DNA from: Candidatus Levyibacteriota bacterium
Lineage (GTDB): Bacteria; Patescibacteriota; Microgenomatia; Levybacterales; UBA12049
DNA length: 64,000 bases
Reading direction: 5' to 3'
Assembly (NCBI GenBank): GCA_017991775.1
Contig: JAGOPV010000004.1
Location: 2,847 to 66,846 of the forward strand
The translations under genes were made by a program, and so were the position numbers. The notes under the pieces are model-generated. The model made no database searches. It saw nothing but the letters and a program-made list of their open reading frames with translations, and was not told where the DNA came from. This document shows, piece by piece, positions 14,786 to 39,840 of the stretch; the first letter of the stretch is position 1; each line of letters begins with the position of its first letter.

Positions 14786-16189
14786 ATGCTTCCCTCTAAA
14801 CTTGCCTTTGTCGATCTTGAGACCACAGGCATGAGGTCTCACTCAGATCGAATCATCGAAATAGGAATCATCCTTGTTGATGACGATAAAGTGAGTTCTA
14901 CCTACTCTTCACTTATTAACCCGGGTGCATATATTCCACCGTCAATTCAAGCGATTACTGGTATCACCCAAAGCGAACTTGAGACTGCTCCTTCTTTTCG
15001 TGAAATTCACGAAATCGTCGAAGAACTCTTAATAGATAGAGTATTTGTTGCACATAATGCACGTTTTGATTACGGATTTTTGAAAAGTGAGTTCAAAAGA
15101 CTCGAGAAGTCATTCTCGCCAAAGCAATTCTGCACAGTCAGATTCTCAAGGACACTCTTCCCGTCTCTCCCAAGACATAACTTAGACACCATCATAAATC
15201 ACTTCGATATTAAGGTTGAAAATAGACATAGAGCCCTTGATGATGCTCAAGCAACCTATGAATTCTTTAAAATTGCAAAAGAAAGAACCGACCCGCAGAT
15301 TTTTAAGACTGCCATCGAGAAAACACTCAAGAAGCCTTATCTTCCTAAGAATCTTGATCCACTCGTACTAGACGCACTTCCCTCGTCTCCTGGCGTCTAT
15401 GTTTTTTATGGAGACGACAACTTTCCCCTCTATATTGGCAAAAGTATCAATTTAAAAGATCGAGTCCTCTCACACTTCTCTGACATCCTCTCGCCTACTG
15501 AAATGAATATTAGTCAACAAATCACACGTATTGAAACGATAAAAACGGCAGGTGAGCTTGGTGCACTTTTTCTTGAATCAAGGATGATCAAAGAGCAACT
15601 TCCTCTCTATAATAAAATGCTTCGTCAAACCCAAGAACTTCTCATTCTCAAAAAGAATATCAATAAAGATGGCTACCTTACGACCTCACTCGAGCAGCTT
15701 CCCAGTACACAACTTCCTGATATGGAGAATAATCTCGGCATATTCCGCACGCGAAAACAGGCAAAAGAATCCCAAAGCGCGCTTTCGCTCAAGTACTCAC
15801 TCTGCGAGAAGCTCCTAGGATTGGAAAAAACAAATGGTGCCTGTTTTGGACATAGATTAGATAGATGCAAAGGGGCATGTATTGGAAAAGAAAATAGTCT
15901 TAGCTATAACATGAGATTCGTCGAGGCATTTAGCACACAACGCATAAAGAACTGGCCATTTGAGGGGAAGATCATAATCACTGAAAAAGATGAGCTTGAG
16001 GGTAAGACTGATTACTTCCTCATCGACAACTGGTGTCTATTGGGAAAGGTCCAGACTGACACAAATGATAGCTTTCTGGAAGATGAATATGACTATTCAT
16101 TTGATCTGGATACCTATAAAATAATCTGTCGATATATTCTTTCGACAAAAAATATTCACAGGATCAAAGCTCTACTCAACGATAACTGA
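14786..16189 (+). CDS. DEDDh 3'-5' exonuclease (DnaQ-like) fused to GIY-YIG nuclease domain (Cho/UvrC-N-like)
   Basis: N-terminal FVDLETTG...HNARFD...HRALDDA exonuclease motifs; GIY-YIG-like VYVFYG...LYIGKS...R in middle. Confidence 0.75.
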   Translation: MLPSKLAFVDLETTGMRSHSDRIIEIGIILVDDDKVSSTYSSLINPGAYIPPSIQAITGITQSELETAPSFREIHEIVEELLIDRVFVAHNARFDYGFLKSEFKRLEKSFSPKQFCTVRFSRTLFPSLPRHNLDTIINHFDIKVENRHRALDDAQATYEFFKIAKERTDPQIFKTAIEKTLKKPYLPKNLDPLVLDALPSSPGVYVFYGDDNFPLYIGKSINLKDRVLSHFSDILSPTEMNISQQITRIETIKTAGELGALFLESRMIKEQLPLYNKMLRQTQELLILKKNINKDGYLTTSLEQLPSTQLPDMENNLGIFRTRKQAKESQSALSLKYSLCEKLLGLEKTNGACFGHRLDRCKGACIGKENSLSYNMRFVEAFSTQRIKNWPFEGKIIITEKDELEGKTDYFLIDNWCLLGKVQTDTNDSFLEDEYDYSFDLDTYKIICRYILSTKNIHRIKALLNDN

Positions 16190-16612
16190 TCCAGTCATCT
16201 CCCCAACGGTATACGTGTACGTTCCTGCTGTTGTGAACATGTACGTCGACTTTTCTCCGTTTTCAAGATTAACGCTATCAAATGTTCCATTGTATGAAGT
16301 GACTTTATGATCAGCGGTACCAGCATTGATCCATGTGACCTGTGTACCAACAGGAACTGTAAGACTATCTGGAGTTACCATATCATCTGATATTGTAACG
16401 GTATTCTCGTCAGCAACTTCCTTGGTCATCGTTGCCGCTTCCTGCTTCATCATTGCGTATCTTCGTGCAACAGATGATCTTCCTAAGATCATAAGGATAA
16501 GAAGGATAACGATAAAACCACCACCAACAATAATCAAAAGTGAGTGCTCACCTGCAAGAGATGAATGTCCTTTAGATGCTGCTACTTTTGTCTTTTTTAC
16601 TTTCTTCGCCAT
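16172..16612 (-). CDS. Membrane-anchored cupredoxin-like domain protein (no Cu ligands evident)
   Basis: TM anchor then beta-rich VPVGTQVTWINAGTADHKV...GTYTYTVG domain; start set at second Met (16612) 9 nt after AGGTGG RBS. Confidence 0.5.
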   Translation of the reverse strand: MAKKVKKTKVAASKGHSSLAGEHSLLIIVGGGFIVILLILMILGRSSVARRYAMMKQEAATMTKEVADENTVTISDDMVTPDSLTVPVGTQVTWINAGTADHKVTSYNGTFDSVNLENGEKSTYMFTTAGTYTYTVGEMTGSVIVE

Positions 16613-16819
16613 AATAATCACCACCTTTAGAAGTTCTTGACGAATGCCTGTAAGGCAGAGTCTCTAGAACTTCTTAACCCCTCGAAGCGAATATTCGACT
16701 GCATGGCTGTAAGCCTTGAGGCGAACATGAGCGAAGTGGGGCTTCACATAATTATCATACATCAGCGGCTGAATAGCTTGTCAATGAGATGATTAGATAG
16801 GAGAGTTAGAAGTGGCGGC

Positions 16820-17665
16820 TTAGGCCTTTGGATACGAGATCTTAGCGTTCTTCTGAAGATTTTGGATAAGAGTCTGTACCTGAGTATTGAATTTTTCTTG
16901 TCTCAAAGCCTCTTTAGCCTGCGCCTTGATATCTGCATCTTTTGTTCCTGCAGGGATAGACTCTTTATTCTTTTCAACATAATCTGTAATTTCCTTGTCG
17001 GACACCTTGATCTCGCCTACGAGCTTCTCCAATAGCTTCTGGAGCTGAATACGTTCCTTATAGTTAGCAAGTGTGTCGCCCTGCATAGCAAGAGCTGACT
17101 CAAGGTTTTGACCCTGACCTTCAAGACTCTTACGTGTCTTTGCAACTTCATCATTAATCTCTTTCTCTGTAACTGAAACATTCTTCTTCTCTGCCTCCTG
17201 ATGTAGGAGAGTCTTTGTTACAAGCTGATTCATTGCTTGCTTTCCAGCAGTTGTTCGAGCTTCTGAAACATAAATCCCCTCAACCTCTTTCATGTAAGTA
17301 AGTCGATCAATTGGTTTGCCATTAACAGTTGCAACTACAAAAAACCCTCTAAAATAAATCAAAAGACCGACGATAAGTAAGACGATAATTGCAAGAATTG
17401 CATGCATCGGACGGATATTTAATCTCTTCATCGTAGCTGTAGCAGATGATCTGTATGATGAGAGCGTACTTTTGGAAGTAGTGGATGATGTCTGAGTTTT
17501 TGCTGGAGACGCTGCTACTTTCGTAGGCGTTGGAGATGATTTAACTGGAGTAGCTTTTGAACTAACTTTTACAACTGATTTGGATGCTTTTTTTGCTGGT
17601 GATGCTTTCAAAGTTGGACTTGTAGTCTTTTTAGCAGTTGATGGTTTAGTTTTTTGTGTCGCCAT
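16820..17665 (-). CDS. Lys/Ala-rich N-terminus, TM anchor, SurA-N/PpiD-like chaperone domain protein
   Basis: Histone-like KKxAK repeats, single TM, helical SurA_N-like domain. Confidence 0.5.
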   Translation of the reverse strand: MATQKTKPSTAKKTTSPTLKASPAKKASKSVVKVSSKATPVKSSPTPTKVAASPAKTQTSSTTSKSTLSSYRSSATATMKRLNIRPMHAILAIIVLLIVGLLIYFRGFFVVATVNGKPIDRLTYMKEVEGIYVSEARTTAGKQAMNQLVTKTLLHQEAEKKNVSVTEKEINDEVAKTRKSLEGQGQNLESALAMQGDTLANYKERIQLQKLLEKLVGEIKVSDKEITDYVEKNKESIPAGTKDADIKAQAKEALRQEKFNTQVQTLIQNLQKNAKISYPKA

Positions 17666-31458: not shown

Positions 31459-32964
31459 CTAGAATCCGGGGAAGTAATCGGAAATGATATTCTTACGCTG
31501 TACACCAACTGAAAGGAGCATGGCTTTATACCCCTCAACCATAGCATTTGGCCCTGAAAGGTAGTACATTCTCTTTGCAAAATTTGGGGTGTATTTTTTC
31601 AGCATATCTTTTGTGAGCCTTCCGCTCTCACCATGCACAGCTTCTCTTGTGGGAACATACATAGTCTTAAGTCCGTATGCCTCAGCCCTTGTAAAAATAT
31701 CTCTATAGACAAAGTCCTCCACAGTATTTGCAAAATAAAAAAGCGTGATATCTCTTTTCTCTTTTTTATCAATAAGGTATGCGGCCATACTCCTAAATGG
31801 TGTAATGCCAATTCCTCCTGCGATGAAGGTCATCTGAACTGTGGGGTCATTTGGGAGTGTAAAATCCCCGGCAAGCTGTGTCGCAATAATTCGAGCATCT
31901 TTGGTAAGTGAAAGTAGTTTCCTTTTAAAGCTACTGGATGATTCACTATCTACTCTAACTCCTAATTTAAGAGTCTCCTCAGTTGGAGATGAGGCTATAG
32001 TAAAAAAACGTCTTACTCCCCTGCTATCACTTTTAGGATGAGAAAGAGTCCATTCTAGATACTGCCCAGCTTTATATGTAAAACCCTTTGGCTTTATAAA
32101 AACGAATTCATAGATATTTGATGCTATTTTCTTAGAACTAATAACTGACAGAAATAGCTTATATTTTGGACCGACAAGATATGAATAAATATTACCAAGA
32201 ACAAGTGCTAACTCTGGCGAGGAATATATCGGCCCTAGCTCAAATCGAATACTAAAAAGCAATCCAACAAGAACCCCGTAGCTCATGTAGAGTTTTTTTG
32301 TTGGCGGCGTTGTCATTGGCTCGGTCAACATGATAGACCCAAAAAATAGTAACGGCCATGATGTAAGAATCAGAACAACCGATTCATTGATGGACACACC
32401 TTGTGCAATATTTAAAAAAGTTAGCACTGGAATAGCGATCAAGGCGAAAGAGAAGAAGAGATGAAATCTTCGTATCTTTCTAACGACCAAGAGACCAAAA
32501 CACAATGTAAATGGTAAAAGAGCAGCGCTCCCAACCCACCAGATAGCGTTCCCAAAACCAAATAGTCCAAGCAGAAAAAGCGAAATAGCCACAGGATTAA
32601 AAATATGCCTCTTGTTAATAGCCAGTAAATATTTGGATACTGAAGCAAGAACACCTGCAACAAACGTGATATACACATCTGTCATGCTTGCAATTGGTGC
32701 AAGGATGAGAAAGAGAATCATCCCTGTAATGATGTAAGATTCAACGTTAGTCGTCGCTTTGAAGAAACGAGCGAGTATCACATGTGAGACCCAAACTCCT
32801 GTCATCACAACAAAATAAGTCTCAATCATAGCAAAACCAGAATATGAGAGGACACCTAAGAAGCCAAAAAGTACTGAGATACAGGACAGGATCAGCAAGC
32901 CATGCATTACAAGCTTATACATCGTAATTTGATTCAGGAACGAGTCGATAAAAGACAGCCGCAT
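31459..32964 (-). CDS. Integral membrane oxidoreductase with C-terminal FNR-like FAD/NAD(P)-binding domain
   Basis: About 8 TM helices then RRFFTIASSP (FAD RxYS-like) and GGIGITPFRSM (NAD-binding GGxGxxP) motifs. Confidence 0.7.
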   Translation of the reverse strand: MRLSFIDSFLNQITMYKLVMHGLLILSCISVLFGFLGVLSYSGFAMIETYFVVMTGVWVSHVILARFFKATTNVESYIITGMILFLILAPIASMTDVYITFVAGVLASVSKYLLAINKRHIFNPVAISLFLLGLFGFGNAIWWVGSAALLPFTLCFGLLVVRKIRRFHLFFSFALIAIPVLTFLNIAQGVSINESVVLILTSWPLLFFGSIMLTEPMTTPPTKKLYMSYGVLVGLLFSIRFELGPIYSSPELALVLGNIYSYLVGPKYKLFLSVISSKKIASNIYEFVFIKPKGFTYKAGQYLEWTLSHPKSDSRGVRRFFTIASSPTEETLKLGVRVDSESSSSFKRKLLSLTKDARIIATQLAGDFTLPNDPTVQMTFIAGGIGITPFRSMAAYLIDKKEKRDITLFYFANTVEDFVYRDIFTRAEAYGLKTMYVPTREAVHGESGRLTKDMLKKYTPNFAKRMYYLSGPNAMVEGYKAMLLSVGVQRKNIISDYFPGF

Positions 32965-32965
32965 A

Positions 32966-33844
32966 TTATGTAGTATAGTAAAGTTCTCCTGGAAAGTCTG
33001 TGGACTTTTTGATACTAAAATCAGGATAAAGAAGGAGGTATGAGAATGAAAATTTTTCTTTCAAGCGATCTGGCTCTACTAAAAATAATGCAGTTGCAAG
33101 AGCATCGGCTGTGATCGCTCTATCAGCAATTACCCATGATGCCAAGATATGACTTGCAGATGAAAGTGTGCGAGGATCAAGAATATGATGGAATTTCCCC
33201 CATTTACGTCTATTACCAGCTGATGCACAGATGCTTTGATCTTTAAGCTGCACAACGCCAATTACCTGACTTAGGTCTTCGGGGTGCTCAAGTCCAATAC
33301 TCAGAGGGAATGATGGATTTTTATAGAGAAGATCTCCCCCTGCATCTATGCAGTATGAATGAATACCTTGCTCTTCAAGATAATTTGCAACCAGATCAAT
33401 GAGATGGCCTTTTCCAAGAGCACCAAAATCAAGCAGTGCGGGTTTTTTGAGAGTTAAGAGTGGAAAATCGTAGTCTATCGCCTCATCCCAGCCATAAGGC
33501 TTTTGTATTTCTTTTTCCCCAAAAGAATAGGAAGCGTCGTACCCGGCATCACTGATAACTGAGCCAATAAGCGGCGTCATTGCTCCATCTGTCAGATCAT
33601 ACATGGTTCTGTAGAGATCGAGCATTTCTTTCGCATCTTTATCTAAAGTGTATTCACCAGCCTTCTTTGACCATATTGTGACATCGGAATCAGCACGAAA
33701 CCGTGAGTACTTTTGATCAAAGCCCTCAACTAATTCAAGAATATGCTTTTCAAGAAAAGCGGCTACTCTCGGATCAAGACGTGGCAGATGATCTATCACC
33801 CACTTGGTACCTATCGCATCAAATACGAATTGGGATGAGCTCAT
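32966..33844 (-). CDS. apbE: ApbE-family FAD:protein FMN transferase
   Basis: ApbE-like sequence pattern through the core (DAGGDL...); located between FNR-like reductase and FMN-binding protein. Confidence 0.7.
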   Translation of the reverse strand: MSSSQFVFDAIGTKWVIDHLPRLDPRVAAFLEKHILELVEGFDQKYSRFRADSDVTIWSKKAGEYTLDKDAKEMLDLYRTMYDLTDGAMTPLIGSVISDAGYDASYSFGEKEIQKPYGWDEAIDYDFPLLTLKKPALLDFGALGKGHLIDLVANYLEEQGIHSYCIDAGGDLLYKNPSFPLSIGLEHPEDLSQVIGVVQLKDQSICASAGNRRKWGKFHHILDPRTLSSASHILASWVIADRAITADALATALFLVEPDRLKEKFSFSYLLLYPDFSIKKSTDFPGELYYTT

Positions 33845-34311
33845 GCTTTGGCTTCTGTTTTCACTTTCTCAAGTGCATCCATGAATCCTTTTGGAGTTAG
33901 AGAAGATCCAGCAACCTTGGTCAACTGTACTTCATCAATCTTTTTGCCAACAACCATCGGCTTAAATCCTTCTGCGAACTCCCCCTGGAATCTCTTTGAG
34001 GGTGCATCTGTGGCACTACCTTCAAAAGTTGAGTCAGTAACAACATCTCCTTGCAGCGTCACTGTAATATTTACCTCACGTGGGCCTCCTGGCGAAACGT
34101 AGTTACCAACGACACTATATGTACCATCTTTATAAATACCTGTAGTAGCAGAGTCTTGTGTTGGAGCCGTAGTCACCTGATCTGAAACTGCACCAGATGG
34201 GACAGTTGAAGATTTTTGAGTCGTATAGAAGAAAATCACTGCGACTGCAATGATTGCAACGACGGCAGCGGGAAGTACGAACTTCATCATAGAATTATTT
34301 TGTTCATCCAT
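33841..34311 (-). CDS. Membrane-anchored FMN-binding (FMN_bind) domain protein, probable flavinylation substrate
   Basis: TM anchor, FMN_bind-like domain with candidate flavinylation site KVAGSSLTPKGF. Confidence 0.6.
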   Translation of the reverse strand: MDEQNNSMMKFVLPAAVVAIIAVAVIFFYTTQKSSTVPSGAVSDQVTTAPTQDSATTGIYKDGTYSVVGNYVSPGGPREVNITVTLQGDVVTDSTFEGSATDAPSKRFQGEFAEGFKPMVVGKKIDEVQLTKVAGSSLTPKGFMDALEKVKTEAKA

Positions 34312-34555
34312 ATAAAATCACCCCCGTTAGAAGCTCTTGCTCTTTTTGTAAAGCAAAAAAGCTTAGAGATTCTTACGTCCCTCATAGTGAACTTTCGGCT
34401 GCATGGCTGTAAGCCTTGAGACGAACGTGAACGACGTGGGACCAAGCCTACTTAGAGTAGCGTAGATTCTTAAGATATCCTAAGCACTACTATATGTGAA
34501 GGTAGTATACAAACCATTTCGTCTTCGTGCAACTGAAAAAAACCTATAGGTTTGC

Positions 34556-34620
34556 TATAATCCCCTTGTTCATTGACACGTTAGGATCGAATCAGGCTAA
34601 CGCCTGGAAAGGACAGGACC
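34556..34620 (+). promoter_or_regulatory. Conserved promoter -10 (TATAAT) plus 5' leader, copy A of 3
   Basis: TATAAT 34556-34561 followed by CCCCTTGTTCATTGACACGTTAGGATCGAATCAGGCTAACGCCTGGAA, identical to copy B. Confidence 0.6.
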
Positions 34621-35088
34621 ATGATCTATCCATTGGTCTTAGTAGTCATCTTTGTTCTTGCCTTTGGCAAGCTCTTCAAGCATTCGAGCTTCAAAGATAT
34701 GACTACTCTTGCGAAAAAGATCTGCTCTTACAGCCTGGGAATTGTATTTGGTGGACTCCTAGGAGTCTTCGTTGGACTTCTTTTGGACAACATCTCCCCA
34801 GCAAGTGAGATTCGCAGCGTTCCCTACACACTAGATCAATTCTCCTCGCCTAAAGGAACGCTTGTTTTTGTGGGCGAGGAGTATGTCTGGTATCTGCTCA
34901 ATGGAGAGGAGAAAAAGACACATCTAAGTGCTGTCGAATTCGTTGAGGCCGACTCGGCAACACTTACCGTACAAGGAGAATACTGCATGCGAGACTTTTG
35001 GTCAATCCTGCTGCGAGGATTTTGTTTCGGCAACGAAACATTTGTCTTCGAAGTTCCACCAGAATCCATTCATCAATTCAAAACCTAA
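34621..35088 (+). CDS. Small membrane protein, array paralog 1 (2 TM + about 90-aa beta-rich C-domain)
   Basis: 155 aa; own promoter/leader and terminator; architecture shared with 35245 and 35886 ORFs. Confidence 0.6.
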   Translation: MIYPLVLVVIFVLAFGKLFKHSSFKDMTTLAKKICSYSLGIVFGGLLGVFVGLLLDNISPASEIRSVPYTLDQFSSPKGTLVFVGEEYVWYLLNGEEKKTHLSAVEFVEADSATLTVQGEYCMRDFWSILLRGFCFGNETFVFEVPPESIHQFKT

Positions 35089-35112
35089 CATCAATCAACC
35101 CAATAATCACAC

Positions 35113-35145
35113 CCCGTCCCGCTAAGCGGGACGGGGTTTTTCTTT
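35113..35145 (+). terminator. Rho-independent terminator (conserved module)
   Basis: CCCCGTCCCGCTAAGCGGGACGGGG hairpin then TTTTTCTTT. Confidence 0.8.
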
Positions 35146-35179
35146 ATCTCATCGCTTGTCCTACGCCTTCAGAATATAC

Positions 35180-35244
35180 TATAATCCCCTTGTTCATTGA
35201 CACGTTAGGATCGAATCAGGCTAACGCCTGGAAGGAGTACCAAA
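35180..35244 (+). promoter_or_regulatory. Conserved promoter -10 plus leader, copy B
   Basis: TTGTCC-18-TATAAT then leader identical to copy A over about 50 nt. Confidence 0.6.
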
Positions 35245-35739
35245 ATGATCAATATTCTTTTTGGAGCTAATCTCGGTGTGCTTTTTTGCATTTTCGCTAG
35301 GCTCTTTATCGGGCCTCATCCAGTAGATAATCGCGAGATTAAAGGTTTGGCAGTATTTGGAGCAATCATTGGAACTATTATCACCCTAGTTGCGTCACCA
35401 TGGATTCTGGATAGAGGACCAATGTCCAACGAATCCAAGATCTATCCCATATACCGCCTCCATGACCCCGCCAATGGTCCGTATCTCATCCTTCAACGGG
35501 ATGGCGAATATGTCGCAGACATCGACATAAAGGAAGGGGTCCAACTCGTTCCTATACCTACATTGACGAACTATCATCTCGAAGTGATAATTGCACCACG
35601 TGATGATGCGATCGCAATCGTATCAACAAATAGGTGCATTAACAGAATCACACTCTGGACAATCTGCTGGAGGAGCACCACGGAGGTCACCTATCGAATT
35701 CCGACTGGAACGCAACTTGACCTCCTCTCGTCAACCTAA
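35245..35739 (+). CDS. Small membrane protein, array paralog 2
   Basis: 164 aa; 2 TM + C-terminal domain; flanked by conserved promoter and terminator modules. Confidence 0.6.
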   Translation: MINILFGANLGVLFCIFARLFIGPHPVDNREIKGLAVFGAIIGTIITLVASPWILDRGPMSNESKIYPIYRLHDPANGPYLILQRDGEYVADIDIKEGVQLVPIPTLTNYHLEVIIAPRDDAIAIVSTNRCINRITLWTICWRSTTEVTYRIPTGTQLDLLSST

Positions 35740-35762
35740 CAATCAACATCTTTCATCCATAC

Positions 35763-35797
35763 CCCGTCTCGCATTATGCAGGCGGGGTTTTTCTTTA
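35763..35797 (+). terminator. Rho-independent terminator (diverged copy)
   Basis: CCCCGTCTCGCATTATGCAGGCGGGG hairpin then TTTTTCTTT. Confidence 0.7.
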
Positions 35798-35830
35798 TCT
35801 CATCGCTTGTCCTAAGCCTTCAGATTATTC

Positions 35831-35885
35831 TATAATCCCCTTGTTCATTGACAGATCGTTGCAAGTCACTTGAAGGGAGTAAAAA
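35831..35885 (+). promoter_or_regulatory. Conserved promoter -10 plus leader, copy C (3' half diverged, alternative hairpin CAAG-tca-CTTG)
   Basis: TATAATCCCCTTGTTCATTGACAG shared, then divergent. Confidence 0.5.
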
Positions 35886-36320
35886 ATGCTCTATCCTATC
35901 ATTGGCATAATCATAGGATTAGTCCTAGCATCAATTTCAAGCACACTGAGTGAAATTCTGGGCAAATGGCTAACCGTCCTCCTGTGCGTCGCCTGCACAT
36001 TTATTCTAGGTGCATATATTGGTACATATGCACCACATGATCAACGCAACAATGTATCTTATCTTTCTCCACATCCAATTTCCGAAAATACTCTTATCAT
36101 CTACAATCAGGGTGACGCCTGGTTGTTCATTGATGGAAAGCTTCGGACCATTGGGAGCGAGAAGGTCCATCTCAATCCAAAAACGGAAGGGGTTCTCATT
36201 GAATCCGAAAGAGGCTGCAATAGCAACTTCCTAACACTCTCCATCTGGAGTCTTTGCGACGGAAGTACTGAATTCAAAGTCGAAATTCCAGACGAGTCGG
36301 TGACATATTCACTCGAGTAA
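35886..36320 (+). CDS. Small membrane protein, array paralog 3
   Basis: 144 aa; 2 TM + C-terminal domain. Confidence 0.6.
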   Translation: MLYPIIGIIIGLVLASISSTLSEILGKWLTVLLCVACTFILGAYIGTYAPHDQRNNVSYLSPHPISENTLIIYNQGDAWLFIDGKLRTIGSEKVHLNPKTEGVLIESERGCNSNFLTLSIWSLCDGSTEFKVEIPDESVTYSLE

Positions 36321-39767: not shown

Positions 39768-39840
39768 TTTCTACTCACCTCCTCCGCCCGCCGAAGTTTT
39801 AACGAAGGCGGGTCTTTCTTACTCTCCAAATAATATCACC

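Follow-up and report, generated by a model that had tools for sequence, protein, structure and literature searches.

Does the structured element in the gap between a minus-strand gene starting at 34311 and a plus-strand gene starting at 34621 act on both genes as a divergent regulatory region, as a sequence-only reading had proposed, or does it belong to one of them? The gap (310 nt) lies in a 64-kb stretch of DNA, the whole of which was analyzed and is referred to as the window. Its geometry was as that reading had described, and the label of a structured intergenic element present in a second copy proved correct. Alignment by blastn of 34308-34440 with 16609-16740 gave 74% identity over 135 nt (E = 6.5e-16). 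The exact minus-strand 22-mer CTCAAGGCTTACAGCCATGCAG occurred only twice in the window, at 34399-34420 and 16699-16720; a third site was not found even with 3 mismatches allowed, nor was any match found at this tolerance in 100 dinucleotide shuffles. The outer stem noticed earlier was also recovered, since the basal helix P1 of the hairpin named H1 here reads GUCCC/GGGAC in copy 2 and GCCCC/GGGGU in copy 1, a compensatory change. The span originally assigned to copy 2 (34312-34520) held for the repeated block, which runs from about 34318 at the Shine-Dalgarno (SD) to 34442 at the base of H1, but not for 34443-34520, which is locus-specific leader and promoter sequence, kept at the orthologous locus of a sister genome and absent from copy 1.

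The genes on the two sides were identified as follows. The minus-strand operon after copy 2 (31459..34311) encodes an FMN-binding-like protein (33841-34311; 156 aa, with the NCBI name 'FMN-binding protein [Candidatus Levybacteria bacterium]'), an ApbE flavin transferase (32966-33844) and a membrane oxidoreductase (31459-32964) with NAD_binding_1 and FAD_binding_8 domains (Pfam). Genes for MarR, a fasciclin protein and a DsbD/thioredoxin protein follow, and the FMN-binding/ApbE/reductase gene order was conserved in homologous loci. Downstream of copy 1 lies a minus-strand gene for a membrane-anchored cupredoxin-like protein (16172-16612; Pfam Cupredoxin_1, E = 3.6e-8). The product of the plus-strand gene 34621 showed neither a Pfam match nor similarity to the cupredoxin protein. 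Joint regulation of the FMN-binding operon and a cupredoxin-like gene, as had been proposed, is supported indirectly for the gene at 16172-16612, and not for gene 34621.

Both copies are arranged as leaders on the minus strand. In copy 2, the 66-nt imperfect hairpin H1 (34377..34442, MFE fold; 86.9 bits, E = 7e-22 with covariance model R1) is followed by a second hairpin, H2 (34327..34375, MFE), with an outer stem AGAAUCUCU/AGAGCUUCU and a variable inner hairpin. H2 ends 1 nt before the SD GGGGGUGA (34318-34325), from which a 6-nt spacer leads to the ATG (34309-34311) of the FMN-binding-like gene; this SD and start region was conserved in the related loci L001, L002 and L127. In copy 1, H1 (16677..16742, minus strand; 90.8 bits) is likewise separated by H2 (16627-16676) from the SD GGUGGUGA (16618-16625) and the ATG (16610-16612) of the cupredoxin-like gene. 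The H2 outer stem, as read from the aligned copies, covaries among the leader-type units (AGAAGUUCU/AGAACUUCU, AGAAACUCU/AGAGUUUCU, AGAAACUGU/ACAGUUUCU and AGAGUCGCU/AGCGACUCU). A single polarity, H1 to H2 to SD to ATG on the unit's own strand, was found in both window copies and in three leader-type relatives (L014, L025 and L048).

Promoter-like sites were located upstream of H1 in both loci. For the minus-strand operon, a consensus scan alone identified a candidate sigma-70-type promoter, TTCACA-17-TATCTT (34472..34500, minus strand; 9/12 matches), which lies outside the repeated unit in a region conserved in the sister genome. The copy 1 promoter, TTGACA with TATGAT, was conserved, its -35 TTGACA being invariant in 4 orthologous loci, and H1 of copy 1 would begin within about 8 nt (about 5-8 nt) of the predicted transcription start. 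The predicted transcripts would carry the same structured module at two transcription units, with promoter-like sites upstream and SD and ATG downstream, as expected of a structured cis-acting 5' leader common to a regulon, the class to which we assign it. Terminator-like sites, in which a U-run follows a GC-rich stem, were not found in 34250-34650 or 16550-16900, and therefore an intrinsic terminator or attenuator was ruled out.

The plus-strand gene, for its part, has a promoter and leader of its own (34533..34609, plus strand), the promoter-like CTGAAA-17-TATAAT at 34533-34561 matching the consensus at 10/12 positions with an additional TG. This promoter-like site and leader are more than 90 nt away from H1, and the leader (34555-34609) recurs at 35179-35233 with 100% identity over 55 nt, before the next paralogous gene. 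A DNA-level divergent operator or cruciform controlling both the FMN operon and gene 34621, the role first suggested for the gap, would fit the 310-nt divergent arrangement, the palindromic DNA and the MarR-family gene in the operon. We nevertheless hold it very improbable, as the compensatory changes preserve arm pairing that independent operator half-sites would not need, the H1-H2-SD unit also precedes genes lacking a divergent partner (copy 1, L014 and L025), the plus-strand promoter and leader are repeated before paralogues, and relatives lacking the element keep the divergent promoter block. Together with the fixed polarity, these observations leave a divergent regulatory region for both flanking genes unsupported. 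The H2 arms were also considered as MarR-type palindromic operators and rejected, since they covary with each other and in L014 are complementary to each other, not self-palindromic.

The paralogues themselves form a tandem of three small membrane-protein genes (34621-35088, 35245-35739 and 35886-36320, plus strand), distantly related and without Pfam match. The first 24 nt of the 55-nt leader recur before the third, at 35830-35853, and hairpin blocks after the first two (35082-35202 and 35733-35853) are 85% identical. A counterpart of this repeat block was not found by blastn in the sister locus L001, where a run of N occurs. Other repeated intergenic or leader-like pairs in the window are 4777-4874/4906-5000 (86%), 58620-58711/59321-59413 (85%) and 59240-59278/60002-60040 (97%). 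Reuse of upstream blocks appears common in the source genome.

The structure of H1 was derived from the fold and the alignment. From the base upward, H1 of copy 2 consists of P1, a 3x3 loop, a 2-bp helix, a UC/UC loop, an ACGUUCG/CGAAAGU helix, 3 variable pairs, a bulged C, an A-A mismatch and a GGCU-UAC-AGCC apex. The apex 18-mer CAAGGCUUACAGCCAUGC (34401..34418, minus strand) is the same in copy 1 and in every collection match carrying the pattern used as the search key; because this 18-mer was that key, its 'invariance' is partly an ascertainment effect. Other GC-rich hairpins replace the apex in L049:2456-2538 and L057:1589-1668. Across 16 aligned sequences, double-sided changes were observed at 17 of 25 pairs with 90.8% of cells paired, a result equaled by none of 500 shuffles, whereas slid controls of the alignment reached just 28-42% pairing. 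Conservation was maximal at the apex and internal loops, not at the termini, and the stems varied by compensation. The 3x3 loop, mostly UUC/UUC, closes into pairs (G-U, U-A) in copy 2 and L039. H1 is a genuine structured element with a conserved core, in which the apex 18-mer served as the search key.

The strand was not settled by this structure. The reverse complement folded slightly better (-432 vs -398 kcal/mol summed over the 16 sequences), and G-U and A-C cells numbered 18 vs 10, with 11 of the 18 G-U cells coming from a single column; both the thermodynamics and the G-U/A-C counts are inconclusive. A conserved small ORF inside H1 was rejected, as frames are not kept, L025 carries a 1-nt shift and copy 2 has no AUG.

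In Rfam 15, a tRNA was the sole feature of the window to attain the gathering score, and neither copy gave a relevant match at E up to 10; nothing relevant was found on 17 related loci with gathering and E-value thresholds, and the SRP, 6S, tmRNA and RNase P models showed no similarity to H1 in the Rfam scans. The literature searched on structured RNAs and riboswitches of CPR bacteria yielded no description of an H1-like family. On these comparisons, H1 would represent a new Microgenomates structured-RNA family with no counterpart in Rfam 15. SRP RNA deserved separate attention, because L014 and L025 place H1 beside dnaX/ybaB and the SRP RNA gene adjoins dnaX in Firmicutes; this identity was rejected, as H1 matched no SRP model, has no GNRA tetraloop or symmetric loop and is present in two copies within 18 kb. 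Resemblances to 5S rRNA, to the sequence of the L11-binding helix H43 of 23S rRNA and to the tRNA-Val anticodon stem-loop (loop CUUACAG) are treated as leads only.

Relatives of H1 were collected with one scan of the apex 18-mer per collection, which returned 26 matches in the genome collection and 55 in the metagenome collection (2 and 20, respectively, with the extended hairpin). These scans gave 13 distinct H1 sequences including both window copies; covariance model R1 added one further 18-mer variant and the copies with a different GC-rich apex, and the final alignment held 16 sequences, 14 of them from outside the window. All contigs that could be named belonged to Microgenomates (Levybacteria and Roizmanbacteria), ultra-small bacteria of the CPR. 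Two scans of viral contigs gave chance matches only and no covariance-model matches, and a viral or mobile-genome origin was set aside on this absence. Seven further FMN-operon loci from other CPR lineages were all without H1, and none occurred in the approximately 112 kb around FMN-operon homologues of such lineages.

The contexts of H1 fell into several types. The complete H1-H2-SD unit stands directly 5' of a gene in five types: the FMN operon, the cupredoxin gene, YbaB (L014), S21 followed by YbeY (L025) and a cupin (L048). H1 also precedes MiaB-like genes in two further types and a zinc-ribbon gene in one, and the downstream genes share no common function. About seven types lie between opposite-strand genes or tRNA genes, like independent small genes; H1 of L049, for instance, lies between tRNA-His and tRNA-Phe. 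In the standalone copies L044 and L084, about 106 nt of H1 plus a second hairpin are identical and the flanks differ, a pattern that argues for purifying selection on this stretch.

Several of these contigs carry rearranged sequence around the hairpin. In L057 (1400-1900, minus strand), two tandem H1 copies precede a MiaB-like gene whose initial 30-35 nt (ATGAAATACCATATYGTTGTTTTCGGCTGC) are present in triplicate, before each H1 and at the true start, and the middle copy differs in a coding-like way; a similar 'KTYGC' fragment is found just before H1 of L034. The apex 18-mer CAAGGCUUACAGCCAUGC also sits on a different covarying lower stem in L053:7076-7158, L045:1189-1252 and L041:196-276, where the alternative stems are CUUGCUCG/CUCGCAAG vs CUUGUUCG/CUUACAAG, and in the L053 contig part of the 5' arm is duplicated. 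The apex may itself be an independent module.

The standalone copies raise the question of whether H1 is primarily an independent small RNA gene, with a housekeeping, sponge or cis-antisense role, of which the leader-type copies are secondary fusions. L044, L084, L043, L086, L077 and L035 place it between opposite-strand genes with -10-like boxes just upstream, a terminator-like hairpin lies downstream in L044/L084, and the 5' strand of P1 in L044 exactly complements the SD of the neighboring gene on the opposite strand. Against this, both window copies are fused to SD and ATG with no terminator between, H1 alone is common to the standalone and leader types, and the housekeeping RNA models named above showed no similarity; we regard this origin as highly unlikely.

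The loci orthologous to the two window copies were compared in close relatives. The sister genome GCA_964533055.1 is syntenic with the window and 83-88% identical to it; its contigs (L001, L025 and L122) are titled 'uncultured Gammaproteobacteria', a label that is probably wrong given the Levybacteria synteny. At its FMN locus (L001), the promoter block and the SD and start are almost unchanged, and a different 95-nt 'module B' lies between them with clean boundaries (...GGCTTG | ... | GGKGGTGA). No target-site duplication was detected at the copy 2 boundaries when the filled and alternative sites were compared. At the cupredoxin orthologue of the same genome (L122), module B is preceded by an H1 remnant with the upper half and apex deleted. 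In a third lineage, the FMN operon is preceded by module B only (L127), and the cupredoxin gene (L126) by both elements in tandem, first an H1 whose apex loop contains a 21-nt hairpin insertion and then module B. Of the more distant cupredoxin orthologues, one has module B only and another neither. H1 is missing before the FMN operon in L001, L127 and L003-L005. The sister genome also carries a copy-1-like H1-H2-SD unit before rpsU, with 87% identity to copy 1.

Module B was located before the FMN operon or cupredoxin gene at L001:3898-3994, L122:2895-2995, L124:879-978, L126:470-571 and L127:409-502, and has no Rfam match. It contains a covarying stem (CUUGCC/GGCAAG, CCUGCC/GGUAGG), a loop CCUCRY that can pair with a downstream GUGAGG to form a possible pseudoknot, and a CCACUC stretch complementary to the SD GGGUGG. 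Its second hairpin equals H1 without the upper module. In these pairings, module B looks more switch-like than H1.

The window holds such a truncated form as well. A 'mini-H1' (39776..39819, minus strand) consists of P1 CCCGCC/GGCGGG and the lower loops, lacks the whole upper hairpin (41 model positions are replaced by 3 nt) and stands directly before the SD of a DUF1761 gene (Pfam). It scored 17.3 bits (E = 0.011) with covariance model R2, matched the L001 insert at 84% over 38 nt (blastn) and equals the second hairpin of module B in relatives. The GC-rich mini-H1 reads CCCGCC-UUCGUUAAAACUUCGG-CGGG, and its CCUUCG can alternatively pair with CGGAGG overlapping the SD; the relatives have the equivalent CCUUCG/CGAAGG.

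Taken together, the comparison of orthologous loci suggests that H1+H2 and module B can fill one slot beside the SD. It also follows that the leaders of the redox loci evolve by copying, nesting and deletion of modules. Each genome has one leader type common to both redox loci, H1+H2 here and module B in GCA_964533055.1; therefore, we argue, the two loci are controlled together. The FMN operon and the cupredoxin gene are thus probably under shared post-transcriptional control, and H1 is probably a recognition or stability element common to both.

What kind of control the leader would exert was considered from its pairing with the SD. Predicted accessibility of the SD was unremarkable (P(unpaired) 0.32-0.76). 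The 5' strand of P1 can pair well with the SD in copy 1 (CCACUU/AGGUGG), and such anti-SD-like pairing extends over 5-6 bp in copy 1, L048 and L025, but over just 3 bp in copy 2, for which a P1 anti-SD switch is therefore unsupported.

These pairings bear on the possibility that H1 serves as the aptamer in a new class of riboswitches that sense a general signal (a metal, redox cofactor or second messenger), with H2 and the SD as expression platform. The anti-SD-like CCNCC in the 5' strand of P1, the conserved core on covarying helices, the position immediately upstream of the translation start and the tandem arrangement in L057 all speak for such a class. Some targets are also metal- or redox-related (the ferric-reductase-like/FMN operon, cupredoxin, cupin and the Fe-S protein MiaB), and a Fur gene adjoins the same operon in other lineages. 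We consider this improbable, however, because H1, a simple rod, lacks the junction or pseudoknot that could form a binding pocket, its internal loops are partly closable (the 3x3 loop is paired in copy 2 and L039), and its apex can be deleted, replaced or expanded. Moreover, no alternative SD pairing appears conserved, and S21, YbaB and the standalone copies misfit a single ligand, the targets showing no consistent association with one pathway. In these other CPR lineages, the gene for a Fur-family regulator (L115:9457-9882 and L118:9427-9921) directly precedes the FMN-binding/ApbE/reductase operon, with a flavokinase nearby, a neighborhood that hints at an iron- or flavin-responsive operon.

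The observations on rearranged and missing copies are those expected if H1 were instead a dispersed palindromic repeat, selfish or neutral and comparable to REP, ERIC or the Rickettsia palindromic elements, spread by recombination or a hairpin-specific enzyme and tolerated in leaders with no regulatory role at the FMN operon. Its sites are non-homologous and in both orientations relative to neighboring genes, presence, absence and decay are polymorphic at orthologous loci of close relatives, and both strands fold equally well. Duplications are seen in the L057 tandem, with its three MiaB-like gene starts of 30-35 nt, and in the 5' arm of L053. Hairpins also appear nested in hairpin loops, as in the L126 apex insertion and in mini-H1 without the upper module. 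Several results nevertheless run counter to this account: the low copy number (2 in 64 kb, none in the approximately 112 kb of other CPR loci), the conservation peak at the apex and internal loops with compensating stems, the fixed position and polarity relative to the SD in the five leader-type units, and the 100% identity of the L044/L084 hairpin region within diverged flanks. The absence of target-site duplication at the copy 2 boundaries and of H1 from the viral contigs, and the shared leader type at both redox loci of each genome, likewise speak against it. We judge a selfish or neutral repeat, the main rival reading, unlikely, yet deserving of serious consideration; were it true, this would be, to our knowledge, the first such repeat family in CPR.

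The reading we tentatively favor, short of confidence, and the most economical one, is that the element is a transcribed, portable minus-strand 5'-leader cassette, not a bidirectional region, which offers a docking site for a trans-acting factor, a 5' stabilizer, or both. The cassette would present the 66-nt rod-like H1, then H2 as a clamp hairpin, then the SD of the FMN-binding/ApbE/reductase operon, in the same order as at the cupredoxin gene 18 kb away. Members of the H1 family would be reused as portable modules, copied before unrelated genes by recombination and serving in some genomes as standalone small transcription units. Placed at or near the mRNA 5' end, H1 may offer as the docking site its unpaired and apical nucleotides, which are invariant on a stem that covaries freely, with a protein as the more likely partner and a metabolite as the less likely one. 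H1 and H2 may jointly set mRNA stability and translation initiation, with joint control of two extracytoplasmic redox loci as the possible outcome. Trans-factor docking or 5' stabilization is preferred over a metabolite pocket because of the invariant core on a covarying rod, the position at the mRNA 5' end and the free-standing copies. Other observations weigh against a leader function, namely the strand undecided by thermodynamics, the roughly seven types between opposite-strand genes or tRNAs, the downstream genes without common function, the unremarkable SD accessibility with anti-SD pairing of only 3 bp in copy 2, and the dispensability of H1 at orthologous loci (absent from L001, L127 and L003-L005, apex deleted in L122, insertion in L126).

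A bolder extension, which we put forward as speculation and think rather unlikely, is that H1 serves for recognition in a riboregulatory system that is new and specific to Microgenomates. Its invariant core would be bound by an RNA-binding protein or a small ligand, which would govern a small regulon including the extracytoplasmic flavin/cupredoxin electron-transfer module, with standalone H1 RNAs as decoys and with H1+H2 and the pseudoknotted module B as swappable sensor cassettes. CPR/Patescibacteria account for much of bacterial diversity, yet no cis-regulatory or structured RNA for them was found in the literature searched. The H1 family connects the two loci for FMN-binding protein, ApbE, NAD/FAD membrane reductase and cupredoxin, plausibly the components of a single extracytoplasmic redox chain. 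In three close lineages, whole leader modules are seen swapped, nested and deleted at fixed boundaries beside the ribosome-binding site. This offers a concrete, testable case in which the transfer of ready-made 5' UTR cassettes might change gene control in reduced genomes, and it would help in finding the trans-acting factor.

Among known systems, REP/BIME, ERIC/IRU and the Rickettsia palindromic elements are dispersed imperfect-palindrome repeats co-transcribed into mRNAs. H1 resembles them as a 60-130-nt imperfect palindrome at unrelated intergenic sites, in either orientation, patchy between relatives and, by predicted transcription, a hairpin within mRNAs. Unlike them, it has a low copy number, is most strongly conserved in the apex and unpaired nucleotides on covarying stems, spans candidate phyla (Levybacteria and Roizmanbacteria), is fused to the SD in five units and was seen without an associated transposase, terminal inverted repeats or target duplication. 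REP/BIME associated with RAYT are palindromes of 20-40 nt, in tens to hundreds per genome, with an associated RAYT (Y1 transposase) gene; H1 measures 66 nt, with the two window copies and none in the CPR loci given above. A MITE was rejected, as the apex is most conserved, the termini covary and the ...GGCTTG / GGKGGTGA boundaries show no target-site duplication. An integron attC site, to which the earlier word 'cassette' might point, has R''/R' core sites (RYYYAAC ... GTTRRRY) at the hairpin base, a variable center and a place 3' of the cassette ORF; it was rejected as well, H1 having CCNCC/GGNGG at the base, a conserved center and a place 5' of genes, abutting the SD.

The FMN riboswitch (RF00050) shares with the copy 2 leader a structured, conserved 5' position beside the translation start and a flavin-related downstream gene. 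The differences are that H1 has no Rfam match at E up to 10, is a single rod hairpin with no multi-helix junction, and is replaced by an unrelated module at the same site in sister genomes. In the E. coli ompA 5' UTR, two stem-loops precede the SD; this leader and the Bacillus 5' stabilizers are portable stabilizer leaders, and the H1 cassette is like them in having a hairpin at or near the mRNA 5' end, a second hairpin abutting the ribosome-binding site and a transferable unit. They are, however, single-gene leaders with neither a conserved sequence family with invariant loops nor standalone copies. Protein-recognized regulon hairpins follow the logic of IRE/IRP, the thrS operator and the CsrA targets with sponge RNAs. 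H1 is comparable in its conserved apical loop, bulged C and mismatch on a compensating stem, placed in the 5' UTR near the start codons of several genes, and its free-standing copies could titrate a binding factor. Since H1 has no sequence similarity to these hairpins and its gene set is heterogeneous, this is a comparison of logic, not membership.

Reused, or 'mobile', promoter and upstream regions have been described before non-homologous genes within and between related genomes, where they rewire downstream control (PMC3575422). Reused upstream regions are thus already known as a concept, and what appears new here is the H1 family, absent from Rfam 15 and found without description in the literature searched. 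As in promoter reuse, the H1 cassette places similar upstream sequence before non-homologous genes; unlike it, sequence upstream of P1 is locus-specific, and the shared block would be a transcribed leader (H1, H2 and SD), not a promoter, with an RNA structure supported by covariation.
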